From Candidatus Nocardiopsis merdipullorum (GTDB lineage Bacteria > Actinomycetota > Actinomycetes > Streptosporangiales > Streptosporangiaceae), in NCBI GenBank assembly GCA_019115445.1, contig DXDP01000365.1, positions 1 to 34,202 on the forward strand: a stretch of DNA of 34,202 nt, written 5' to 3'. Below, piece after piece: positions 10,322-33,458 of the stretch. How positions within the stretch are numbered: the first letter of the stretch is position 1; every line of letters starts with the position of its first letter. Below the pieces are notes generated by a model. The model made no database searches. It worked only from the letters and a program-made list of their open reading frames with translations, and had not been told where the DNA came from. The position numbers were made by a program, and so were the translations under genes.

Positions 10322-11827
<1,506 letters not shown>

Positions 11828-11979: not shown

Positions 11980-13194
11980 ATGAAAGAACCCGCTCGTCTT
12001 CTCGTGTCCTTGCTCTCGGCCACGACAGTGGCCGCCCTTGCACCCGCATCTGCGGGGGCATCGGACGAGGTGGCCCCGGACCTCGAACCCACCCTGGTCG
12101 TGGCCCCCGACGGGGACGACTCCGCCGCCGGAAGCCTCGACGACCCCTTCGCCACCGTGCAACATGCAGTGGACCTGGCCGAACCCGGTGATGTGATCTC
12201 CGTCCGCGGCGGCACCTACGCTCTCGACGACCAGAACATCACGATCGACACCAGTGGAACATCCGACGAGCCCATCACCCTCACCGCCCACGAGGGCGAA
12301 CGCGTGATCATCGACGGGCAGGACCTGCCGGCCAGTTCCACGCCGATTGGTGGCGACATCCCGCGGGACGAACGCGGCACCATCCACCAAGAGGCGTCCC
12401 ACTGGGTCGTGAACGGGCTGGAGTTGATCAACGGCCCCTACGGCTACTACTGCGACGGCTGCGATGACAATGTGTTCTCCGACCTGGTGACGCGGGAAAA
12501 CTATGAAAGCGGTTTCCAGCTGCAGGGGGAGTCCTCCGACAACCTCGTCCTCAACCTGGACAGCTACGGAAACAGAGACCCCCGCAAGAACGGGGAGAGC
12601 GCCGACGGCCTGGCGATCAAGGAGGGCTCGGGTACCGGGAACGTCGTTCGAGGCGCACGGCTCTGGGACAACGCCGACGACGGTTTCGACGCCTGGGAGT
12701 TCGAGGACCCCATCACCATCGTCGACTCCCTCGTCCACGGCAACGGTTTCAATCGGTGGGACCTGCCCGATTTCTCGGGTGACGGCAACGGATTCAAACT
12801 CGGCGGGGGAGACCCGGCCCCACACGTGGCCCACGAACTCCACAACACAGCGGCTTGGGACAACGCAGCCGATGGATACACCGACAACGGAAACCACGGT
12901 GCAGTGAGCATCGACTCCAGCACCGCCTACGACAACGCCGTCGACGGCTTCGAACTGGACGGATCCAGCGGCTCCCTCACCGACAACCTGGCCCTCGACA
13001 ACGAGACCGACGTCCAGCCGGGAGAGGGCGAGAACACCGGAAACTCCTGGAACCTGGACACCCCCATCACCACGGACGACCTGCTCTCCACCGACCCCTC
13101 CACGATCAACGGCCCCCGATCGTCGGACGGATCCATCCCCTCCTCCGACTACCTCGTGCCCGCCGACCATTCCGATATCGGCGCTCGTTGGTGA
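11980..13194 (+). CDS. Secreted right-handed beta-helix polysaccharide lyase, PL9 (pectate lyase L-like)
   Basis: Signal peptide MKEPARLLVSLL...ASAGA. Motifs VAPDGDDSAAGS..DPFAT, RGGTY, ADGLAIK, NADDGFD, GDGNGFKLGG (PL9 catalytic Lys motif). Very Asp-rich. Confidence 0.88.
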   Translation: MKEPARLLVSLLSATTVAALAPASAGASDEVAPDLEPTLVVAPDGDDSAAGSLDDPFATVQHAVDLAEPGDVISVRGGTYALDDQNITIDTSGTSDEPITLTAHEGERVIIDGQDLPASSTPIGGDIPRDERGTIHQEASHWVVNGLELINGPYGYYCDGCDDNVFSDLVTRENYESGFQLQGESSDNLVLNLDSYGNRDPRKNGESADGLAIKEGSGTGNVVRGARLWDNADDGFDAWEFEDPITIVDSLVHGNGFNRWDLPDFSGDGNGFKLGGGDPAPHVAHELHNTAAWDNAADGYTDNGNHGAVSIDSSTAYDNAVDGFELDGSSGSLTDNLALDNETDVQPGEGENTGNSWNLDTPITTDDLLSTDPSTINGPRSSDGSIPSSDYLVPADHSDIGARW

Positions 13195-18418: not shown

Positions 18419-19912
18419 GTGCTACTGACGATCACGACCACAGCCTCTTCGACCGCCCCTGCCACGGACCTCGGCTTTCTGCTGCACAAGCACCCGGACA
18501 AGGTGCAAAGTTTCGAGCAGTCCTTCGGAACGGCCCACGTGTTCTATCCCGAGGCCACAGAGGAACGCTGTACGGCGGCCCTTCTGCTGGAGGTGGACCC
18601 GCAGTCGTTGTTGCGCACGCGTGCGTCCGTACGCACCCCCGACTTCTCGCTCGCCCAGTACGTCAACGACCGGCCCTACGCGACCTCTTCACTGTTCACC
18701 GTGGCGCTGGGTCAGGTTCTGCGCACAGCGCTGCGCGGCCGATGCGCACAACGCCCCGAACTGGCTCGTACCCCGATCCCGCTGGAACTGAGCCTGCCTG
18801 CGGTACCCTGCCGACCCGGCCCCGAAAAGGCCCGGGCACTGTTCGAACCGCTCGGTTGGCGGGTCCGCGCCGAACCGGTACCGCTCGACCCAGAACTTCC
18901 GGGCTGGGGCGACTCCCACTACCTTTCCCTCACCCTCACCGGAACCTTGCGCCTGTCGGATGCCCTCAGCCACCTGTACGTGCTGCTGCCCGCCATGGAC
19001 AGCAGCAAGAAGCACTACTGGATGGACGAGACCGAGGTCGACAAACTGCTGCGCGCCGGGGGAGTCGACGACGAGGACGGGCACGGGTGGCTCGCCGAAC
19101 ATCCAGAGCGCACGTGGATCACCCGCCGCTATCTCGACCGGCGTGAACGTTACGTGCGCACCGCACTCGGGCGCCTCATGGAAGTGGATGACACCCCTGA
19201 GGGCGAGGCCGACGACCCGGCGGTGGAGGAGTCCTCCACCACACCACACCTGGAGGAACGCGGGGCCGACCTGGCCGAACAGCGGGTCGGTGCGGTCCTG
19301 GCCGTGCTGAACGCCGAACGGGTCGGCAGCGTCATCGATCTGGGCTGTGGTGGCGGCAAACTCCTGGAGAGCCTGGTCAAGGAACCCACCTTGGGACGGG
19401 TCAGTGGCGTGGACGTCGACATCGACAGCCTCGAACACGCCCACCGGGCGACCTGCCGGGGTTGTGCACCGTCCGGGAAGGGACACCGGACGGATCTGTT
19501 CGAGGAGCAATCCACCACGGACGGGCAACGGCCCCGCCCCGACCTGTTCGTCGGTTCGGTCCTGTACCGGGACCGGCGTTTCGCCGATCATGACGCCGCC
19601 GTACTCATGGAGGTCGTCGAACACATCGACCCCTCCCGGCTGGCCGCCATGGAGGACGTCGTGTTCTCCGGGGCCGCCCCACGCGTCGTCGTCATCACCA
19701 CACCCAACGCCGAATACAACACGCACTACGAGGGACTGGAAGAAGGGGCCTTTCGGCACAGCGACCACCGTTTCGAGTGGACCCGTGCCGAGTTCGCCCG
19801 TTGGGCCGATCGGGTCGCCGACACCCACGGCTACCAGGTCCGTCACCTGCCGGTGGGAGAAGAGGAACCCGACACCGGCGCTCCGACCCAGATGGGGGTT
19901 TTCACCAAATGA
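18419..19912 (+). CDS. hen1: 3'-terminal RNA ribose 2'-O-methyltransferase Hen1
   Basis: N-terminal ligase-activating domain (PATDLGFLLHKHP, YVNDRPY, KHYW). C-terminal MTase (DLGCGGG, EVVEH, TTPNAEYN, RHSDHRFEWTR). ATGA overlap with pnkp. Confidence 0.96.
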   Translation: MLLTITTTASSTAPATDLGFLLHKHPDKVQSFEQSFGTAHVFYPEATEERCTAALLLEVDPQSLLRTRASVRTPDFSLAQYVNDRPYATSSLFTVALGQVLRTALRGRCAQRPELARTPIPLELSLPAVPCRPGPEKARALFEPLGWRVRAEPVPLDPELPGWGDSHYLSLTLTGTLRLSDALSHLYVLLPAMDSSKKHYWMDETEVDKLLRAGGVDDEDGHGWLAEHPERTWITRRYLDRRERYVRTALGRLMEVDDTPEGEADDPAVEESSTTPHLEERGADLAEQRVGAVLAVLNAERVGSVIDLGCGGGKLLESLVKEPTLGRVSGVDVDIDSLEHAHRATCRGCAPSGKGHRTDLFEEQSTTDGQRPRPDLFVGSVLYRDRRFADHDAAVLMEVVEHIDPSRLAAMEDVVFSGAAPRVVVITTPNAEYNTHYEGLEEGAFRHSDHRFEWTRAEFARWADRVADTHGYQVRHLPVGEEEPDTGAPTQMGVFTK

Positions 19913-22497
19913 GCGCGACAGAGAAGACCGAGACCGACGTGTCCCGTGTGCTCGGCGTGCCTCGGATGGGACTTGTCCTCCTGGTCGGGGTCTCCGGGGC
20001 CGGCAAGTCCACCTTCGCCGCCCAACACTTCCTGCCCACCCAGGTCATCGGCTCCGACGAGTGCCGGGGCATGGTCAGCGACGACCCCAACGACCAGAGC
20101 GCCTCCTCCGACGCCTTCGCCCTGATGCGCACCATCATCGACGTCCGTCTGCGGCGTGGTCTGCTCACCGTCGTGGACGCCACCAACGTCCAACGCAGGG
20201 CTCGAGAGGAACTTGTCCGTGTGGCCAAGGACAACAACGTCCTGACCACGGCGATCGTCCTCGATGTGCCCGCGGCCGTGGCCGTCGAACGCAACCGGCA
20301 ACGCACCGAACGCAACTTCGGCGACCACGTGATCCACAGGCAGCGACGAGACCTCAAGGGGAGCCTGAAACGTCTGCAACGTGAAGGCATCCGCAAGGTG
20401 CACGTCCTGCGGGGACAGGAGGAGATCGACCGTGCCGTCATCGAACTGGAACGCCCCTGGCCCGACAAGCGGGAGCTCCACGGGCCGTTCGACATCATCG
20501 GTGACGTGCACGGCTGCCGAAGCGAGCTGGAGACACTCCTCGACGACCTCGGGTACGCCCTCACCCGGGACGATCAGGGCCGCCCCGTCGACGCGCACCA
20601 CCCCGAGGGACGCACCGCCGTGTTCGTCGGCGACCTCGTCGACCGTGGCCCCGACAGCCCCGGTGTGCTTCGCCTGGTCATGGGCATGGTCGAGGCCGGA
20701 AACGCCCTGTGCGTGCCCGGCAACCACGAGAACAAACTCGTCCGAGCGCTCAAGGGCGCCACGGTCCGGGTCAGCCACGGCCTCGGCGAAACCCTGGAGC
20801 AGCTCGACCAGGAAACCGACACCTTCCGGGAGCAGGTCCTTGCCTTCTGTGACGGGCTGGTCAGTCACCTCGTGCTCGACGACGGCGAACTCGTCGTGGC
20901 CCACGCCGGGCTGAAGGAGGAGTACCACATGCGGGCCTCCGGGAGGGTGCGCTCCTTCGCCCTGTACGGAGACACCACGGGGGAGACCGACGAGTACGGG
21001 CTACCGATACGTCTGCCCTGGGCCCGTGACTACCGAGGCAGGGCCGCGGTGGTCTACGGACACACGCCCATCGACAAGGCCGAGTGGATCAACAACACTC
21101 TTTGCCTGGACACCGGCTGTGTCTTCGGGGGCCGTCTCACCGCACTGCGCTATCCCGAACGCGAGATCGTGGACGTCGCGGCCGAGCGCACCTGGTACGA
21201 GCCGGTACGCCCGACGGCCGACACCGCGCCGTCCGAGCTCGAACACCGTGCCCCGGCCGCCGTGAACATCACCGACGTCGGTATCGGCGGGCCCCGCCCC
21301 GGATTGTTCGTGGACACCCCCGACGGGGTCGTACGCACCGACCCGGGCAACACTTTGGCCGCCCTGGAGGTCATGAGCCGGTTCGCGGTCGACCCGCGTT
21401 GGCTCCTTCACCTGCCGGCGACCATGGCACCGGCACCGACCGCGGCCGACCCGTCCCTGTTGGAACACCCGGCCGAGGCGTTCACCTCCTACCTGGGTTC
21501 TGGTGTCGGCCAGGTCATGTGCCAGGAAAAGCACATGGGGTCCCGGGCCGTGGCGGTACTGTGTCGCGACGCGGCGGCGGCCGAACGCAGGTTCGTCCCG
21601 GGTGAGCTCGGCATGGTCTTCACCCGCACCGGCAGACCGTTCTTCTCCGACCCGGGGCTGCAGACAGAGCTGATCGACCAGCTCCGGCAGGCCGTCACCG
21701 ACGCCGGCCTGTGGGACCGGCTCGGTACCGACTGGGTCGCGTTGGACGGTGAGCTGATGCCCTGGTCGGCCAAGGCACGCACGCTGATCCGGGACCAGTA
21801 CGCCTCCGTCGGTGCGGCGGCCCGATCCGCCCTGCCCGCCGCGGGTCGGGCGTTGGCCTCGGCCGCAGCGCGCGGCATGGACGTGGACCGCCTCAAGTCG
21901 CTCGTGGCGCGGCGCACCGACCAGATGGAGGAGTTCAGCCACGTTTACCGGCGCTACTCCTGGGACACCGACGGCATCACCGGCCTGCGGTTCGCGCCGT
22001 TCACCGTCCTTGCTTCCGAAGGCCGGGAGTACACCGAGGCCGACCACGTGTGGCACATGGCGATCGCCGAACGTCTCACCGAGGCCTCGGAACTGATCCA
22101 CCCCACCCGCCACCTGGTCGTGGACACCACGGACCCGGCCGCGTGCGAGGCCGCGACGGACTGGTGGACCGACCTGGTGTCCGAGGGTGGTGAAGGAATG
22201 GTCGTCAAACCGCTGTTGGGTGCTCGCGCACGTGGCCGTAAGAGTCTGGCCCTACCGGGGTTGAAGGTACGCGGTCCGGAGTACCTGAGGATCATCTACG
22301 GGGCCGATTACCCCGAACGCCTCGAGGCGCTCAAGGAACGCAACCTCGGCCGTAAGAGGGGACTCGCCATGCGTGAACACAAGCTCGGTCTGGAGTCCCT
22401 GGCCCGGCACGCCCGCAAGGAACCGCTCTGGCGGGTCCACGAACCGGTGTTCGCGCTCCTGGCCCTGGAGACCGAACCGGTCGACCCCCGGTTGTGA
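19909..22497 (+). CDS. pnkp: Polynucleotide kinase-phosphatase-ligase Pnkp
   Basis: Kinase GVSGAGKST and DECR; metallophosphoesterase GDVHG, GDLVDRG, GNHE, GHTP, DTG; ligase QEKHMGSR, DGELMPW, EGMVVKP, LKVRG; C-terminal DPRL. Confidence 0.97.
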   Translation: MSATEKTETDVSRVLGVPRMGLVLLVGVSGAGKSTFAAQHFLPTQVIGSDECRGMVSDDPNDQSASSDAFALMRTIIDVRLRRGLLTVVDATNVQRRAREELVRVAKDNNVLTTAIVLDVPAAVAVERNRQRTERNFGDHVIHRQRRDLKGSLKRLQREGIRKVHVLRGQEEIDRAVIELERPWPDKRELHGPFDIIGDVHGCRSELETLLDDLGYALTRDDQGRPVDAHHPEGRTAVFVGDLVDRGPDSPGVLRLVMGMVEAGNALCVPGNHENKLVRALKGATVRVSHGLGETLEQLDQETDTFREQVLAFCDGLVSHLVLDDGELVVAHAGLKEEYHMRASGRVRSFALYGDTTGETDEYGLPIRLPWARDYRGRAAVVYGHTPIDKAEWINNTLCLDTGCVFGGRLTALRYPEREIVDVAAERTWYEPVRPTADTAPSELEHRAPAAVNITDVGIGGPRPGLFVDTPDGVVRTDPGNTLAALEVMSRFAVDPRWLLHLPATMAPAPTAADPSLLEHPAEAFTSYLGSGVGQVMCQEKHMGSRAVAVLCRDAAAAERRFVPGELGMVFTRTGRPFFSDPGLQTELIDQLRQAVTDAGLWDRLGTDWVALDGELMPWSAKARTLIRDQYASVGAAARSALPAAGRALASAAARGMDVDRLKSLVARRTDQMEEFSHVYRRYSWDTDGITGLRFAPFTVLASEGREYTEADHVWHMAIAERLTEASELIHPTRHLVVDTTDPAACEAATDWWTDLVSEGGEGMVVKPLLGARARGRKSLALPGLKVRGPEYLRIIYGADYPERLEALKERNLGRKRGLAMREHKLGLESLARHARKEPLWRVHEPVFALLALETEPVDPRL

Positions 22498-27337: not shown

Positions 27338-28066
27338 ATGGGTGCGGTTGGGTTTTCGGGAGTGAGCAGAATCTATGGGGAAGGGGATGTGACGGTCGCC
27401 GCGCTCCGCGATGTGACCTGGACCTTTGAGCAAAGAACATTCACCGCCGTCATGGGGCCCTCCGGGTCGGGGAAAAGCACACTGCTGAAATGCGCGGCGG
27501 GGCTCGTACGGCCGACTGCGGGAACCGTACGGCTCGGGGACACGAGTCTGGAAGAACTCCCGGAAAGCAAACTGGCCGTCGTTCGTCGGGAACGCGTCGG
27601 CTTCGTCTTCCAGGAGTTCAACCTGATACCCGCCTTGACCGCCCGGGAGAACATCACCCTGCCCCTTCGCCTGGCCGGGCGCACCGGTGACGAGATGTGG
27701 TTGGAGCAGATCACCCGCCGTACGGGGATCCAGGACCGCCTCTTCCACAGGCCCGACGAACTCTCCGGAGGCCAACAACAACGTGTCGCCCTGTGTCGGG
27801 CCCTGATCAACCGACCGGACCTCGTCTGCGGGGACGAACCGACCGGAGCCCTGGACAGCGAGTCGAGCCGTCAGGTCATGACCTTGCTGAGAGAAGCGGT
27901 GGACGAGTTCGGGCAGACACTCGTCCTGGTGACGCACGACCCGTTGGCTGCGAGTTATGCGGACCAGGTGCTGTTTTTGGTGGACGGGACCATCGCCGAC
28001 ACCATGGACTGGCCGACGTCCCGGAAAGTGGCCGAGCACATGACCGTCCTGGTGGGGCAGGCATGA
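27338..28066 (+). CDS. ABC ATP-binding protein, LolD/MacB-like
   Basis: Motifs [49 protein letters not shown]. Confidence 0.95.
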
Positions 28067-30627
28067 TCGGGGTCGCCTGGCGCATCCTGTGGCGACAACC
28101 GGGAACGCTCGTCGGGGCCTTGGTCATGACCGTCCTCGGCGCCGCGCTGTTGAGCGCGTTCATGGTCCTGCACGACTCGATCGCCAAGACCCGGGCCCCG
28201 GTGGAACGTTACGCAGATGCCGATGTGGTGGTGGCCGGTGAGGACGGTGTACTCACCACGGAACAGATCAGCTCCATGGAGGAGCTACCAGGGGTCGCCA
28301 GGGCGATCCCGGAGCTGTCCTTCCCGGCCTCTCCCCTGGATGGAGGGGGAGAACCGGTCCTCGACCAGGAAGAGAGGCCCCAGTTCGGCCACTCCTGGAC
28401 CAGTGCCCAGCTCACCCCGATGCGGATACAGGAGGGTGTGGAACCTCGGGCCGTGGACGAGGTCGTCCTCGACCACGCGCTCGCCGAAGCATCCGGTGCG
28501 GGGATCGGTGACAAGATCGATGTCGATGTCGCGGGTACCGCACGTACCTACGAACTCGTCGGCCTTGCGACCGACAACAACGACGGAGACCTGAACCACC
28601 AGCACACGCTGTACTTCTTCCCCGAGGAGGCGACGCTCCTGGCCGATCGTGGGGAGGATCGCGTCGATGCCGCCGGTCTGATCCTCCAACCCGGCACGGA
28701 CGCGGCCGAGATCGTGGAACGTGTCCACGATCTTGTGTCGGAGGGGTTGGCGGGGGACGCGCCCGTACCGCCGGGTGCCGAGTCCTTCCTCGTGGCCTCG
28801 GCCGGTGATCGAGGCGAGCTGGAGGGCACCTGGCCCGACCACAGCGCCACCGCAGCGGCTCTTTCGCTGCTCGTGTGGATCGTGGCGTTCATGGCCGTCG
28901 TCGTGATCGGTGGTGCACTGATCACCTCCGTCCGGCGCAGGACCGCGCAGTTCGCCTTGCTGCGTGCGGTGGGTGCCACACCCCGACAGATACGTGTGCT
29001 CTGCCAGGGCGAGGCCCTGCTGATCTCGCTCGTGGCGGCGGTCGTGGGCTGTGCGTTCGGTCTCTTCCTGGCCTGGGGCATGGTCGGACTGTTCCGTGAG
29101 TTCGGCCTCGTGAGCCCCGTACTGGCGTTGAACATCGGGGTGAGGCCCCTGCTCACCTCTGCCGTCGTACTCGTGCTGGTCGCTCAGAGCGCCTCCTGGG
29201 CGGCTTCGCGGTCGGCGCTGCGGATCAGGCCGGGTGACGCCCTGAGCGGGTCGGGAGAACGCAGCAGACACCGCCTGCGGACATGGCTCCAAGTGTCGTT
29301 GGGGAGCCTTCTCCTCGTCGCGGCCGGCGGCCTGCAGGCTCTGGGGATGGCGGGGCTGGTCCCGGCCGTGCTGTACGCGAGTTACGGAATGGTCGCCGGC
29401 ATCATGATCATGGTCGGGATCGGGCTGCTCGGCTCGTGGATCATCCACGCCTTCTCCCGTGCGCTTCGTCACCCCGTGGCGGCGATTTCGCGTGTCGGGG
29501 GACATCTTGCGTCCGCGAACGTGCGGTTCCACCACCGCCGCTTCGCGGGTGTGGCCGCCCCATTGGCCGTGGGAGTGGCCATCGCCGGATGGGCGCTGAG
29601 TGGCCTGCCCCTGTTCGCCCTGAACAACGCCGACCAGACCCTGGAGCGCTTCGAGGCCGACCACGTGCTCCACACCCCCGTCGTACGGGACGAACACACG
29701 GGTCTTTCCGAGGCGACGAGGGACCGGGTGGCCGAGGTCGAGGGCGTCCTCGCGACGGCCGGGCTCAAGGAGACCTGGGCCCATGCGCGGGCGGCCGGCA
29801 GCAAGGAACCCGCTCGTGCGGGCGAGACGACACGCCTGACCCTCGTCGACGGTGAGGCGAGCAGAGTCTTGGACCTGGGTGAGGTAGGAGGGGACCTCTC
29901 CGGAGTGGACACGGGGGAGGGTGTCGCCGTCGGTGCCACTTACGCACAGGACCGAGGCCTGGAGCTGGGAGACGAGGTCGAGATGCGGATCTCCGGCGCC
30001 ACAGAGGTCTCCCGCCAACAGGTGGTGGCTGTTTACGAACGGGACGGGGGCGGTCAGGACGGCTTGGTCGCGCCGGTCTCCACGCTGAGCCCGGAGGTCC
30101 CCGGCGGCCGGTACGACTTCGTCCTGGTCTCCGGCGGGCCGGACGGGGGCTCGGGGAGTTCTGTCCTGAAAGGGGAGGCCACGATCTCCGGCGATGTCGG
30201 AGTCGAGGCCCCGGGCCGGTTTCACCGGACCTACGTCTCGGAGCGGGAAGCCGCGATCGACAACCTCGGCACCGTGGCCACCGCGCTCGTGGGTGTGTTC
30301 CTCGTCCTGGCGGCGGTCAACGCCCTGGCGGTGTCGGCGTCGGACCGCAGGTCCGAGTTGGTGTCGATGAGACGGCTCAACCTGACCACGGCACAGATCA
30401 ACGCCATGGTCGGTTGGGAGATGGTGCTGACGGTGACCCCTGCCTGGCTGCTCGGCATGGGGGCGACCGCGTGGATGGCCCTGGCCATGGCGGGTGGCGA
30501 CGTCGGCGCGGCTCTTTGGGCCTTCCCTGGGGTGGTGTTGCCGCTCGTGGGAGTTCTCGGCCTTGTGGTTGCAGTGCTGGGAGCACTGTTGGCAACGCGA
30601 AGCCTGATGAGTTCCCTGACTGTGTGA
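28063..30627 (+). CDS. FtsX-like ABC permease with two FtsX domains (854 aa)
   Basis: Motifs RRRTAQFALLRAVGATPRQI and DRRSELVSMRRLNLTTAQI, two extracytoplasmic domains, multiple TMs. ATGA overlap with the ATPase. Confidence 0.92.
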   Translation: MIGVAWRILWRQPGTLVGALVMTVLGAALLSAFMVLHDSIAKTRAPVERYADADVVVAGEDGVLTTEQISSMEELPGVARAIPELSFPASPLDGGGEPVLDQEERPQFGHSWTSAQLTPMRIQEGVEPRAVDEVVLDHALAEASGAGIGDKIDVDVAGTARTYELVGLATDNNDGDLNHQHTLYFFPEEATLLADRGEDRVDAAGLILQPGTDAAEIVERVHDLVSEGLAGDAPVPPGAESFLVASAGDRGELEGTWPDHSATAAALSLLVWIVAFMAVVVIGGALITSVRRRTAQFALLRAVGATPRQIRVLCQGEALLISLVAAVVGCAFGLFLAWGMVGLFREFGLVSPVLALNIGVRPLLTSAVVLVLVAQSASWAASRSALRIRPGDALSGSGERSRHRLRTWLQVSLGSLLLVAAGGLQALGMAGLVPAVLYASYGMVAGIMIMVGIGLLGSWIIHAFSRALRHPVAAISRVGGHLASANVRFHHRRFAGVAAPLAVGVAIAGWALSGLPLFALNNADQTLERFEADHVLHTPVVRDEHTGLSEATRDRVAEVEGVLATAGLKETWAHARAAGSKEPARAGETTRLTLVDGEASRVLDLGEVGGDLSGVDTGEGVAVGATYAQDRGLELGDEVEMRISGATEVSRQQVVAVYERDGGGQDGLVAPVSTLSPEVPGGRYDFVLVSGGPDGGSGSSVLKGEATISGDVGVEAPGRFHRTYVSEREAAIDNLGTVATALVGVFLVLAAVNALAVSASDRRSELVSMRRLNLTTAQINAMVGWEMVLTVTPAWLLGMGATAWMALAMAGGDVGAALWAFPGVVLPLVGVLGLVVAVLGALLATRSLMSSLTV

Positions 30628-30757: not shown

Positions 30758-31771
<1,014 letters not shown>

Positions 31772-31877: not shown

Positions 31878-33458
31878 GTGTCCGTTGGTGCTGACACCAC
31901 GTTCGACACCGTCCTCGTCGTCGACCTCGGCGCGCAACACGCGCAGCTGATCGCCCGGCGAGTACGGGAAGCGCACGTGCACAGCCAGATCGTGCCCTCG
32001 ACCATGCCCGTCGGGGAGATGCTCGCCAAGAAACCCAAGGCCATCGTCCTGTCCGGAGGTCCTGGGTCGGTCCACGCCGAGGGGGCGCCCAACCTCGACG
32101 CGGAACTGCTCGAGACCGGGATCCCGACCCTGGGCCTCCACCATGGTTTCCAGGCGATGGCGCAAGCCCTGGGTGGGACCGTGAACGCAACCGGCTCGGA
32201 CGAGTCCGGCCGTACCGAACTCACGGTCGTCACCGACTCCGTACTGTTTGCGGGCATGCCCCCCGAGCAGCTCGTGTGGACGTCGTACGGTGACACCGTC
32301 ACGGCCGCACCACCGGGTTGTGTCACCACCGCGAGTACCACCGACGCCCCGGTAGCCGCGTTCGAGGACACCGACCGCCGTCTGTTCGGTGTCCAGCTCC
32401 ACCCCGAGGTGCTCCACACCGAGTACGGGCAGGAAGTGCTGCGTCGCTTCCTGTACGAAGGTGCCGGGTGTCGCCCCACCTGGACGATGGTCAACATCGT
32501 TCAGGAACAGGTCGAACGGATCCGTGAGCAGATCGGTGACAAACGCGCCATCTGTGCCCTGAGCGGGGGCGTGGACTCGGCAGTGGCCGGGGCTCTTGTG
32601 CAGCGTGCCGTCGGTGAACAGCTCACTTGCGTGTTCGTCGACCACGGCCTGTTGCGCAAGGGTGAGGCCGAACAGGTCGACAAGGACTTCGTTGCGGCCA
32701 CCGGCGCCAAACTCAAGGTGGTCGATGCGGAGGAGCAGTTCCTCGCCGCCCTTGCCGGGGTGAGCGATCCCGAGACCAAACGCAAGATCATCGGCCGTGA
32801 GTTCATCCGGACCTTCGAGCAGGCCGCCCGGGAGGTCGTCGCCGAGGGCGGCGAGGGGGACACCGAGGTCGAGTTCCTGGTGCAGGGCACCCTGTACCCG
32901 GACGTGGTCGAGTCCGGTGCCGGCCCCGGTGCGACCAACATCAAGTCCCACCACAACGTGGGCGGACTTCCCGAAGATCTCCGGTTCACCCTGGTGGAGC
33001 CGTTGCGGGAACTGTTCAAGGACGAGGTCCGCAAAGTCGGTGAAGAACTCGGTCTGCCGCCCGAGATGGTGTGGCGCCAGCCGTTCCCCGGCCCCGGTCT
33101 GGGGATCCGGATCATCGGTGACGTGACCCGTGAACGTCTGCAGATCCTGCGTGAGGCCGATGCCATCGCTCGGGAGGAACTCACCCGCGCCGGACTGGAT
33201 CGGGACATCTGGCAATGCCCGGTGGTGTTGCTGGCCGATGTGCGTTCGGTGGGGGTGCAGGGTGAGGGCCGTACCTATGGTCACCCGGTCGTGTTGCGTC
33301 CCGTCAGCAGTGAGGACGCCATGACCGCCGACTGGTCCCGGGTCCCCTACGACGTGCTCGCCCGCATCTCCGAGCGGATCACCGACGAGGTCCAAGAGGT
33401 CAACCGGGTCACTTTGGACGTGACCGGCAAACCCCCGGGCACCATCGAGTGGGAGTAG
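31878..33458 (+). CDS. guaA: GMP synthase with a degenerate glutamine amidotransferase domain (nucleophile Cys replaced by His)
   Basis: Synthetase motifs intact ([51 protein letters not shown]). GATase nucleophile elbow reads GLHHGFQ. GTG 31878 after GGAAGG; -10-like TAGACT at 31832-31837. Confidence 0.95.

Follow-up and report, generated by a model that had tools for sequence, protein, structure and literature searches.

The window, as the whole stretch of 34,202 nucleotides from Candidatus Nocardiopsis merdipullorum is called here, is part of a 4.2-Mb MAG (G000) assembled in 545 contigs and 85% complete. The genes and features on which the analysis turned were:

10337..11827, + strand, guaB (IMP dehydrogenase), the XMP supplier, with the GPGSICTT motif intact
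30758..31771, + strand, galE, the conserved neighbour upstream of guaA and a synteny marker
31878..33458, + strand, guaA, two-domain GMP synthase of 526 aa, the sole copy found in the assembly (PRK00074, 715 bits against a cut-off of 400)
31902..32477, + strand, class I glutaminase domain of GuaA, residues 9-200, predicted fold kept and active site eroded
32139..32141, + strand, codon CAC, His88, where the nucleophile-elbow Cys belongs
32277..32294, + strand, WTSYGD, replacing WMSHGD
32400..32408, + strand, His175-Pro-Glu177, members of the triad still present
32478..33107, + strand, ATP-pyrophosphatase (ATPPase) domain of GuaA with SGGVDS, D342/E345 and IKSHHN intact
33108..33455, + strand, dimerisation domain of GuaA with R510, K518 and E524 (KPPGTIEWE)

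The guaA reading frame (31878-33458) contained no stops and no frameshifts, and GuaA passed all three NCBIfam cut-offs (TIGR00888, 196 against 172; TIGR00884, 481 against 339, in addition to PRK00074), its glutaminase, ATPPase and dimerisation domains scoring above the curated limits as expected of EC 6.3.5.2. Searches by tblastn and over the whole genome found no second guaA in the 85% complete MAG; the presence tally of the whole-genome search was the one place where three genomes marked unpublished (G025, G030 and G036) were counted. Each of 50 congeners had a single match. The synteny claimed for the gene in the preliminary description was borne out: G015 and G009 have galE directly next to guaA, and in the fetched congener regions the series groEL-guaB-guaB3-glpD is found upstream of guaA. 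The contigs of one RNA library run (X16) contain guaA; contigs of this kind cannot show transcription.

Three other parts of the window were recorded. A Hen1-Pnkp RNA repair pair (18419-22494) occupies the same place in G015 and G058. A pectate-lyase-like gene (12028-13191) between guaB and guaB3 was unmatched in the three congener regions fetched, and an ABC transporter, consisting of an ATPase and an FtsX-type permease (27338-30627), between a two-component system and galE, likewise had no match in the congener regions fetched.

Glutaminase site and synthetase half of GuaA

Codon 32139-32141 was CAC and aligned with the GVCYG cysteine of E. coli GuaA (1GPM), so that the G-x-C-x-G-x-Q elbow of a glutamine-hydrolysing GuaA has His88 in place of its nucleophile. 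The triad residues H175 and E177 were retained, and these, together with the altered motifs DLGAQH, ESG and WTSYGD, were as first described. One further supposed lesion, SVY to SVH, did not hold, since SVH also occurs in Cys-bearing relatives (L013, P0009-P0012) and in the A. baumannii enzyme (7SBC).

The GICYG motif was kept in all 24 congeners and five more distant genomes aligned. In an alignment of 151 rows, Cys was present in 144 and His in seven, the latter being the window's protein (twice) and P0002-P0006. None of the 50 congeners exceeded 79% identity in the glutaminase domain. GLHHGFQ was found in 13 of the 14 non-window sequences of the same clusters, and in the fourteenth the predicted start lies beyond the motif. 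Contigs of two other studies (runs X11 and X5) cover codon 88, and their 24 and 8 differences from the window all lie elsewhere. Sequencing error, already argued to be improbable in the preliminary description, is thus ruled out as the source of His88 by the 13 other database sequences and the X11 and X5 contigs; His88 is fixed in a lineage. One member of the set, P0005, joins this lineage's N-terminal half to a divergent C-terminal part and is probably an assembly chimera.

Sites invariant in GuaA were defined from 24 congeners and two outgroups. The glutaminase domain had changed at 11 of 106 such sites (F17L, Y21H, E37Q, F78L, I87L, C88H, Y89H, M135T, H137Y, F148C and F174L), the ATPPase domain at 3 of 144 and the dimerisation domain at 3 of 87. 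The difference between the glutaminase domain and the C-terminal half (6/231; E268D, G348A, A353T, D463E, N503D and S517G) was significant (Fisher p = 0.005), and no congener had more than one invariant site changed in any domain. Pairwise dN/dS, computed per domain, was 0.25 for the glutaminase, 0.095 for the ATPPase and 0.076 for the dimerisation domain; the corresponding congener values were 0.21, 0.128 and 0.078. Selection thus constrains the synthetase half no less than usual, since its pairwise dN/dS is no higher than among congeners. The dead glutaminase domain is for the most part still constrained, the active site excepted, with a slightly raised dN/dS, and it is likely that it has been retained for structural reasons.

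It had also been suggested that the domain was repurposed as a scaffold or sensor. A new role of this kind, in which His88, His89 and His175 would serve a ligand or metal sensor or some other chemistry, might be read from the several changes that introduced histidines (Y21H, C88H and Y89H) and from the continuing constraint on the domain (dN/dS about 0.25). However, other lineages have Ser, Asp or Ala in place of the Cys and some have also lost the triad His, the domain varies more among strains (11 of 192 sites) than the remainder of GuaA (7 of 326), and the pattern looks like release from selection, not like the making of one new site. No evidence for a sensor role was found, and this explanation is considered highly unlikely.

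The claim that the ATPPase and dimerisation domains are intact stood for the catalytic motifs but not for the six invariant sites already listed. Catalytic residues were matched by motif and spacing to passages of PMC10526850 that report residues essential in Plasmodium GMP synthase; SGGVDS, D342/E345, K356-N360 and R510/K518/E524 were all present. An AlphaFold2 model had the GMP synthase fold (mean pLDDT 82), its best Foldseek matches being 7SBC and 1GPM (TM 0.83-0.86); the fold was predicted from the canonical alignment and says little on activity.

These data also bear on whether guaA is dispensable and decaying in a cell that salvages guanine. An hpt-like motif, the long branch of the lineage and the six changed sites in the C-terminal half are what such decay might produce. 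Nevertheless, none of the 13 other His88 sequences has a broken frame, the synthetase half has a dN/dS not above that of the congeners, guaB is intact and the damage clusters at the glutamine site. With neither the broken frame nor the whole-gene relaxed selection of a pseudogene, guaA is most improbably a gene in decay. The protein has very probably kept its function as a GMP synthase. Judged by its elbow, it is not a glutamine-hydrolysing GuaA, glutamine-dependent GMP formation is predicted to be absent, and the database label "glutamine-hydrolyzing", which came from automatic annotation, is probably wrong for this protein.

Glutamine supply and other glutaminase modules

Glutamine synthetase had no match in the 85% complete MAG, nor had glutamate synthase or the ammonium transporter. 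All 50 congeners had at least two glutamine synthetase matches, gltB was found in 49 of them and amtB in all 50. Across the class, 298 of 300 sampled genomes had glutamine synthetase, a tally that takes in three genomes marked unpublished (G131, G338 and G141), all positive. None of the gaps is at a contig end, and in each case a single contig contains both flanks: 1) two unrelated genes lie between the flanks of glnA1-glnE (C260), 2) those of glnA2 enclose a LuxR-type regulator in the same order as in G009 (C125), 3) those of gltBD are less than 200 bases apart (C165), and 4) ftsY is separated from the next gene by 410 bases with no amtB (C244). No nucleotide remnants of glnA2, glnE, gltB or amtB were found in the MAG, and the search for glnA1 returned only a 43-base match (E 9e-4). 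The glnA1/glnE gap is also spanned, at 97% identity, by a 2308-base contig from another study (X13), and it is tiled by X5, X8 and X11. An assembly gap is therefore ruled out by the synteny within contigs and by run X13.

NADP-glutamate dehydrogenase, a short NadE, gatCAB and glutaminase A (intact, C160) were all retained, giving the genotype with glutamate dehydrogenase and lacking GS, GOGAT and Amt that is known from Syntrophaceticus schinkii. Neither glutaminase A nor gdhA was a new acquisition, since both are ancestral (found in 44 and 42 of the 50 congeners, respectively), and the short NadE, considered as a derived switch of type, is also found in G015 and G009. A motif search found no GlnRS motif in the MAG. 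Since glnR, glnK, glnD, urease and asnB were probed by motifs only, they are not counted as absent. The GuaA lesion belongs to a loss, across the genome, of the means to supply nitrogen through glutamine.

Three other glutaminase modules were reduced or missing, each within a single contig that has both flanks:

C207:1963-2084, hisH, a short 5' remnant before priA, beside intact-looking his genes
C139:7925-8035, pdxT, a 3' remnant beside pdxS
C88:13602-14906, GlmS without its glutaminase domain (L198), EGALKLKE and the C-terminal Lys motif kept

The hisH remnant is repeated in a JGI contig (L357) that also has hisD, hisC and hisB, and pdxT was found in two of the three congeners searched. GlmS lacks about its first 200 residues, with coaA still upstream, and this SIS-only form is a cluster of 21 members. 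In a scoring of invariant sites in 62 genes, based on up to five congeners, the GlmS remnant was the fastest-changing (52/350 sites, against a median of 5.6%). Its dN/dS was 0.21 vs 0.13, 49 of its 404 sites vary among 11 strains, a pace equal to that of the dead GuaA domain, and at least one assembly seems to have it in two pieces (P0262 and P0267). The remnant may simply be decaying; given the relaxed selection and the split copy, it was downgraded as a sign of an ammonia-using GlmS. A NagB-II-like SIS protein (C82:560-1606, L249), which scored below its cut-off and adjoins a PTS EIIA-like gene, is a possible alternative route to glucosamine 6-phosphate.

The switch away from glutamine is incomplete, for the nucleophile is still present at eight other glutaminase sites (CarA, PyrG, PurF, PurQ, TrpG, CobQ, a GatD-like protein and GatA); these may use scavenged glutamine. 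In the same 62-gene scoring, 15% of invariant sites had changed in the GuaA glutaminase, 10% in that of CarA, 9% in TrpG, 8% in the PyrG C-terminus and 5-7% in PurF, PurQ and GatA. Pairwise dN/dS of CarA and GatA was not raised relative to the congeners. CarA (C456:24494-25636) retains its Cys, His and Glu, with SNGPG altered to SSGPG and IK(A/S)M to MTST. Two further genes lie at contig ends, hisF (a contig gap) and the pabA half of pabAB.

A partner glutaminase for GuaA had been offered in the preliminary description. Archaea do have two-subunit GMP synthases (PMC10526850), and a MAG that is 85% complete leaves room for a docking subunit or for a canonical second guaA in sequence missing from the assembly. 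The six class I glutaminase matches in the MAG were nevertheless the ordinary pathway genes carA, guaA, trpE(G), pyrG, purQ and cobQ, and no orphan class I glutaminase was found in this 85% complete assembly, glutaminase A, stand-alone and ancestral, being present. A second guaA would also depart from the single match in all 50 congeners, and without glutamine synthetase the substrate of a partner would be missing. Either arrangement has a very low probability.

The same retained genes raise a different explanation, that the organism is an amino-acid scavenger that imports glutamine and peptides, and that GuaA receives ammonia from the cell's own glutaminase A and deaminases and not from a high-ammonia habitat. 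The intact glutaminase A, the eight sites that keep a nucleophile and the presence of the lineage in soil runs speak for it. Glutaminase A, however, is as common among congeners as already noted, and with plentiful glutamine there is no clear reason for losing the glutaminase parts of GuaA, HisH, PdxT and GlmS. This explanation is regarded as improbable, and even so GuaA would use free NH3.

Cysteine-less GuaA in other genomes

A pattern scan for Cys-less GuaA that covered 185,579 species, and that undercounts (it missed G085, G092 and G093), returned 13 other cases. In ten, the motifs were normal apart from a lone change of Cys to Tyr, Phe or Ser, and these were discounted as likely errors or strain mutations; three were multi-site cases.

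One of the multi-site cases (L171) belongs to an Actinomyces MAG, G067, which from its name series we take to be from a biogas plant. It had no glutamine synthetase match, and its GuaA, HisH and PurQ have all lost the Cys; judged by a motif, its glutamine-type NadE is apparently also Cys-less. Of 40 relatives, four lacked glutamine synthetase, and in these GuaA was Cys-less wherever it was found (3/3) and PurQ in all four. Six of the 36 synthetase-bearing relatives were examined, and the Cys was present in GuaA in 6/6 and in PurQ in the 5/5 found. Because the PurQ changes are shared, the Actinomycetaceae cases suggest a single clade, and they are probably one event, independent of the lineage described here. 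As in that lineage, the PurF and GatA sites are kept. The sequences recorded from this synthetase-less clade with Cys-less GuaA, PurQ and HisH were L171, L221, L231, L206, L262-L265 and L271-L273; no class II match for GlmS was found in the clade.

The link between synthetase loss and glutaminase decay is not universal. A counter-case, G078, has a multi-site Cys-less GuaA (L182) as its only GuaA match, with glutamine synthetase present; this genome has one 2.7-Mb contig, and CarA, PurQ and GlmS had no match in it. In G071 the glutamine synthetase match was weak only. Conversely, the two of 300 class genomes that lacked a synthetase match at E 1e-100 (G166 and G243) keep the Cys in GlmS and PurF.

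Proposed ammonia-dependent GMP synthesis and known systems

With the glutamine supply deleted and the GuaA cysteine lost, GuaA is most likely an ammonia-dependent GMP synthase in a lineage that lacks glutamine synthetase, glutamate synthase and Amt. We consider this probable. A natural ammonia-dependent enzyme had been among the first readings of the sequence; it is the best of them and has genomic support from the single guaA and the deleted supply, although the activity itself is a prediction. According to PMC10526850, GMP synthases accept exogenous ammonia in vitro, with a published ammonium Km of 11-174 mM, and every GMP synthase studied has been taken to draw its nitrogen physiologically from glutamine.

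In the proposed scheme, XMP made by GuaB would be adenylated by the conserved synthetase half and aminated by NH3 straight from the cytoplasm. Ammonia would be fixed by the retained NADP-glutamate dehydrogenase in place of GS/GOGAT, and the cell itself would make hardly any free glutamine, or none. In Actinobacteria, Gln-tRNA comes from the GatCAB route, so translation is not known to need free glutamine; here too the amide would be formed on the tRNA by GatCAB. Loss of the glutamine pool would have released the glutaminase sites from selection, and the organism would depend on a habitat rich in ammonia and peptides. The best-matching runs for guaA were soil metagenomes, and the 12 studies with at least half of the gene's words comprised four from compost, digesters or biogas, three from soil, one from food and four unlabelled or coded. 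An ammonia-rich niche is plausible.

Formation of GMP directly from free ammonia, which is likely here, would be very unusual for a free-living actinobacterium. The main interest of the case is the genome-wide retreat from glutamine. The wider picture, at somewhat less than an even chance, is of an aerobic actinobacterium that is free-living, produces no free glutamine, obtains GMP, histidine, vitamin B6, NAD and Gln-tRNA from ambient ammonia with its glutaminase modules half dismantled and, with the Actinomycetaceae clade, marks a repeatable route. If true, the route would run from loss of glutamine synthetase to loss of the glutaminases enzyme by enzyme. Whether cells can live with free ammonia as amide donor, and what service a glutaminase domain gives the synthetase after its own chemistry has ended, become testable questions. 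The retreat from glutamine may explain why no cultured member appears among the named matches of a widespread lineage, and the genotype suggests a culture medium with high ammonium, alkaline pH and peptides.

The open literature, most subscription papers lying outside this coverage, yielded neither a natural GuaA lacking the Cys nor a Nocardiopsis that lacks glutamine synthetase. Loss of GS and Amt in digester syntrophs and ammonia use by isolated synthase modules are already in print. S. schinkii and T. acetatoxydans lack glutamine synthetase and ammonium transporters, keep glutamate dehydrogenase and occupy high-ammonia niches (PMC5113046), and Sporosarcina pasteurii is described as without GS and GOGAT activity (PMC7775470). 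These organisms, however, are Bacillota, and the passages seen of both papers do not report decayed amidotransferase glutaminase sites. Natural loss of glnA is also known in Blochmannia vafer, for which ammonia use by CarAB was proposed, but this endosymbiont is fed by its host and has no glutamate dehydrogenase either (PMC3017870).

Among synthase modules, the ATPPase subunit of archaeal two-subunit GMP synthases (PMC10526850) and single-domain NadE (PMC3376133) are synthetases of the free-ammonia type. NadE uses ammonia in vivo but never carried a glutaminase (PMC3376133), and the archaeal subunit is normally paired with a working one (PMC10526850). An actinobacterial parallel is the HisF of Corynebacterium glutamicum, which without HisH is apparently driven by ammonia in vivo; there, the hisH deletion was engineered in a strain that has the gene naturally, and the result is cited as an unpublished observation (PMC3896937).

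The closest comparison is with GuaA itself (EC 6.3.5.2). The E. coli (1GPM) and A. baumannii (7SBC) enzymes have the same architecture, predicted fold, synthetase motifs and gene position, and differ in that here the catalytic Cys is absent, the glutamine pocket is eroded and the host is without glutamine synthetase. In P. falciparum GMP synthase the Cys was removed, as here, in the C89A and C89A/C113A mutants; the double mutant was without glutamine-dependent activity and kept NH4Cl-dependent activity, with a lower Km (PMC9312489). Those mutants were engineered, whereas the loss of the Cys in the present lineage is natural, extends over several sites and is fixed in a population.
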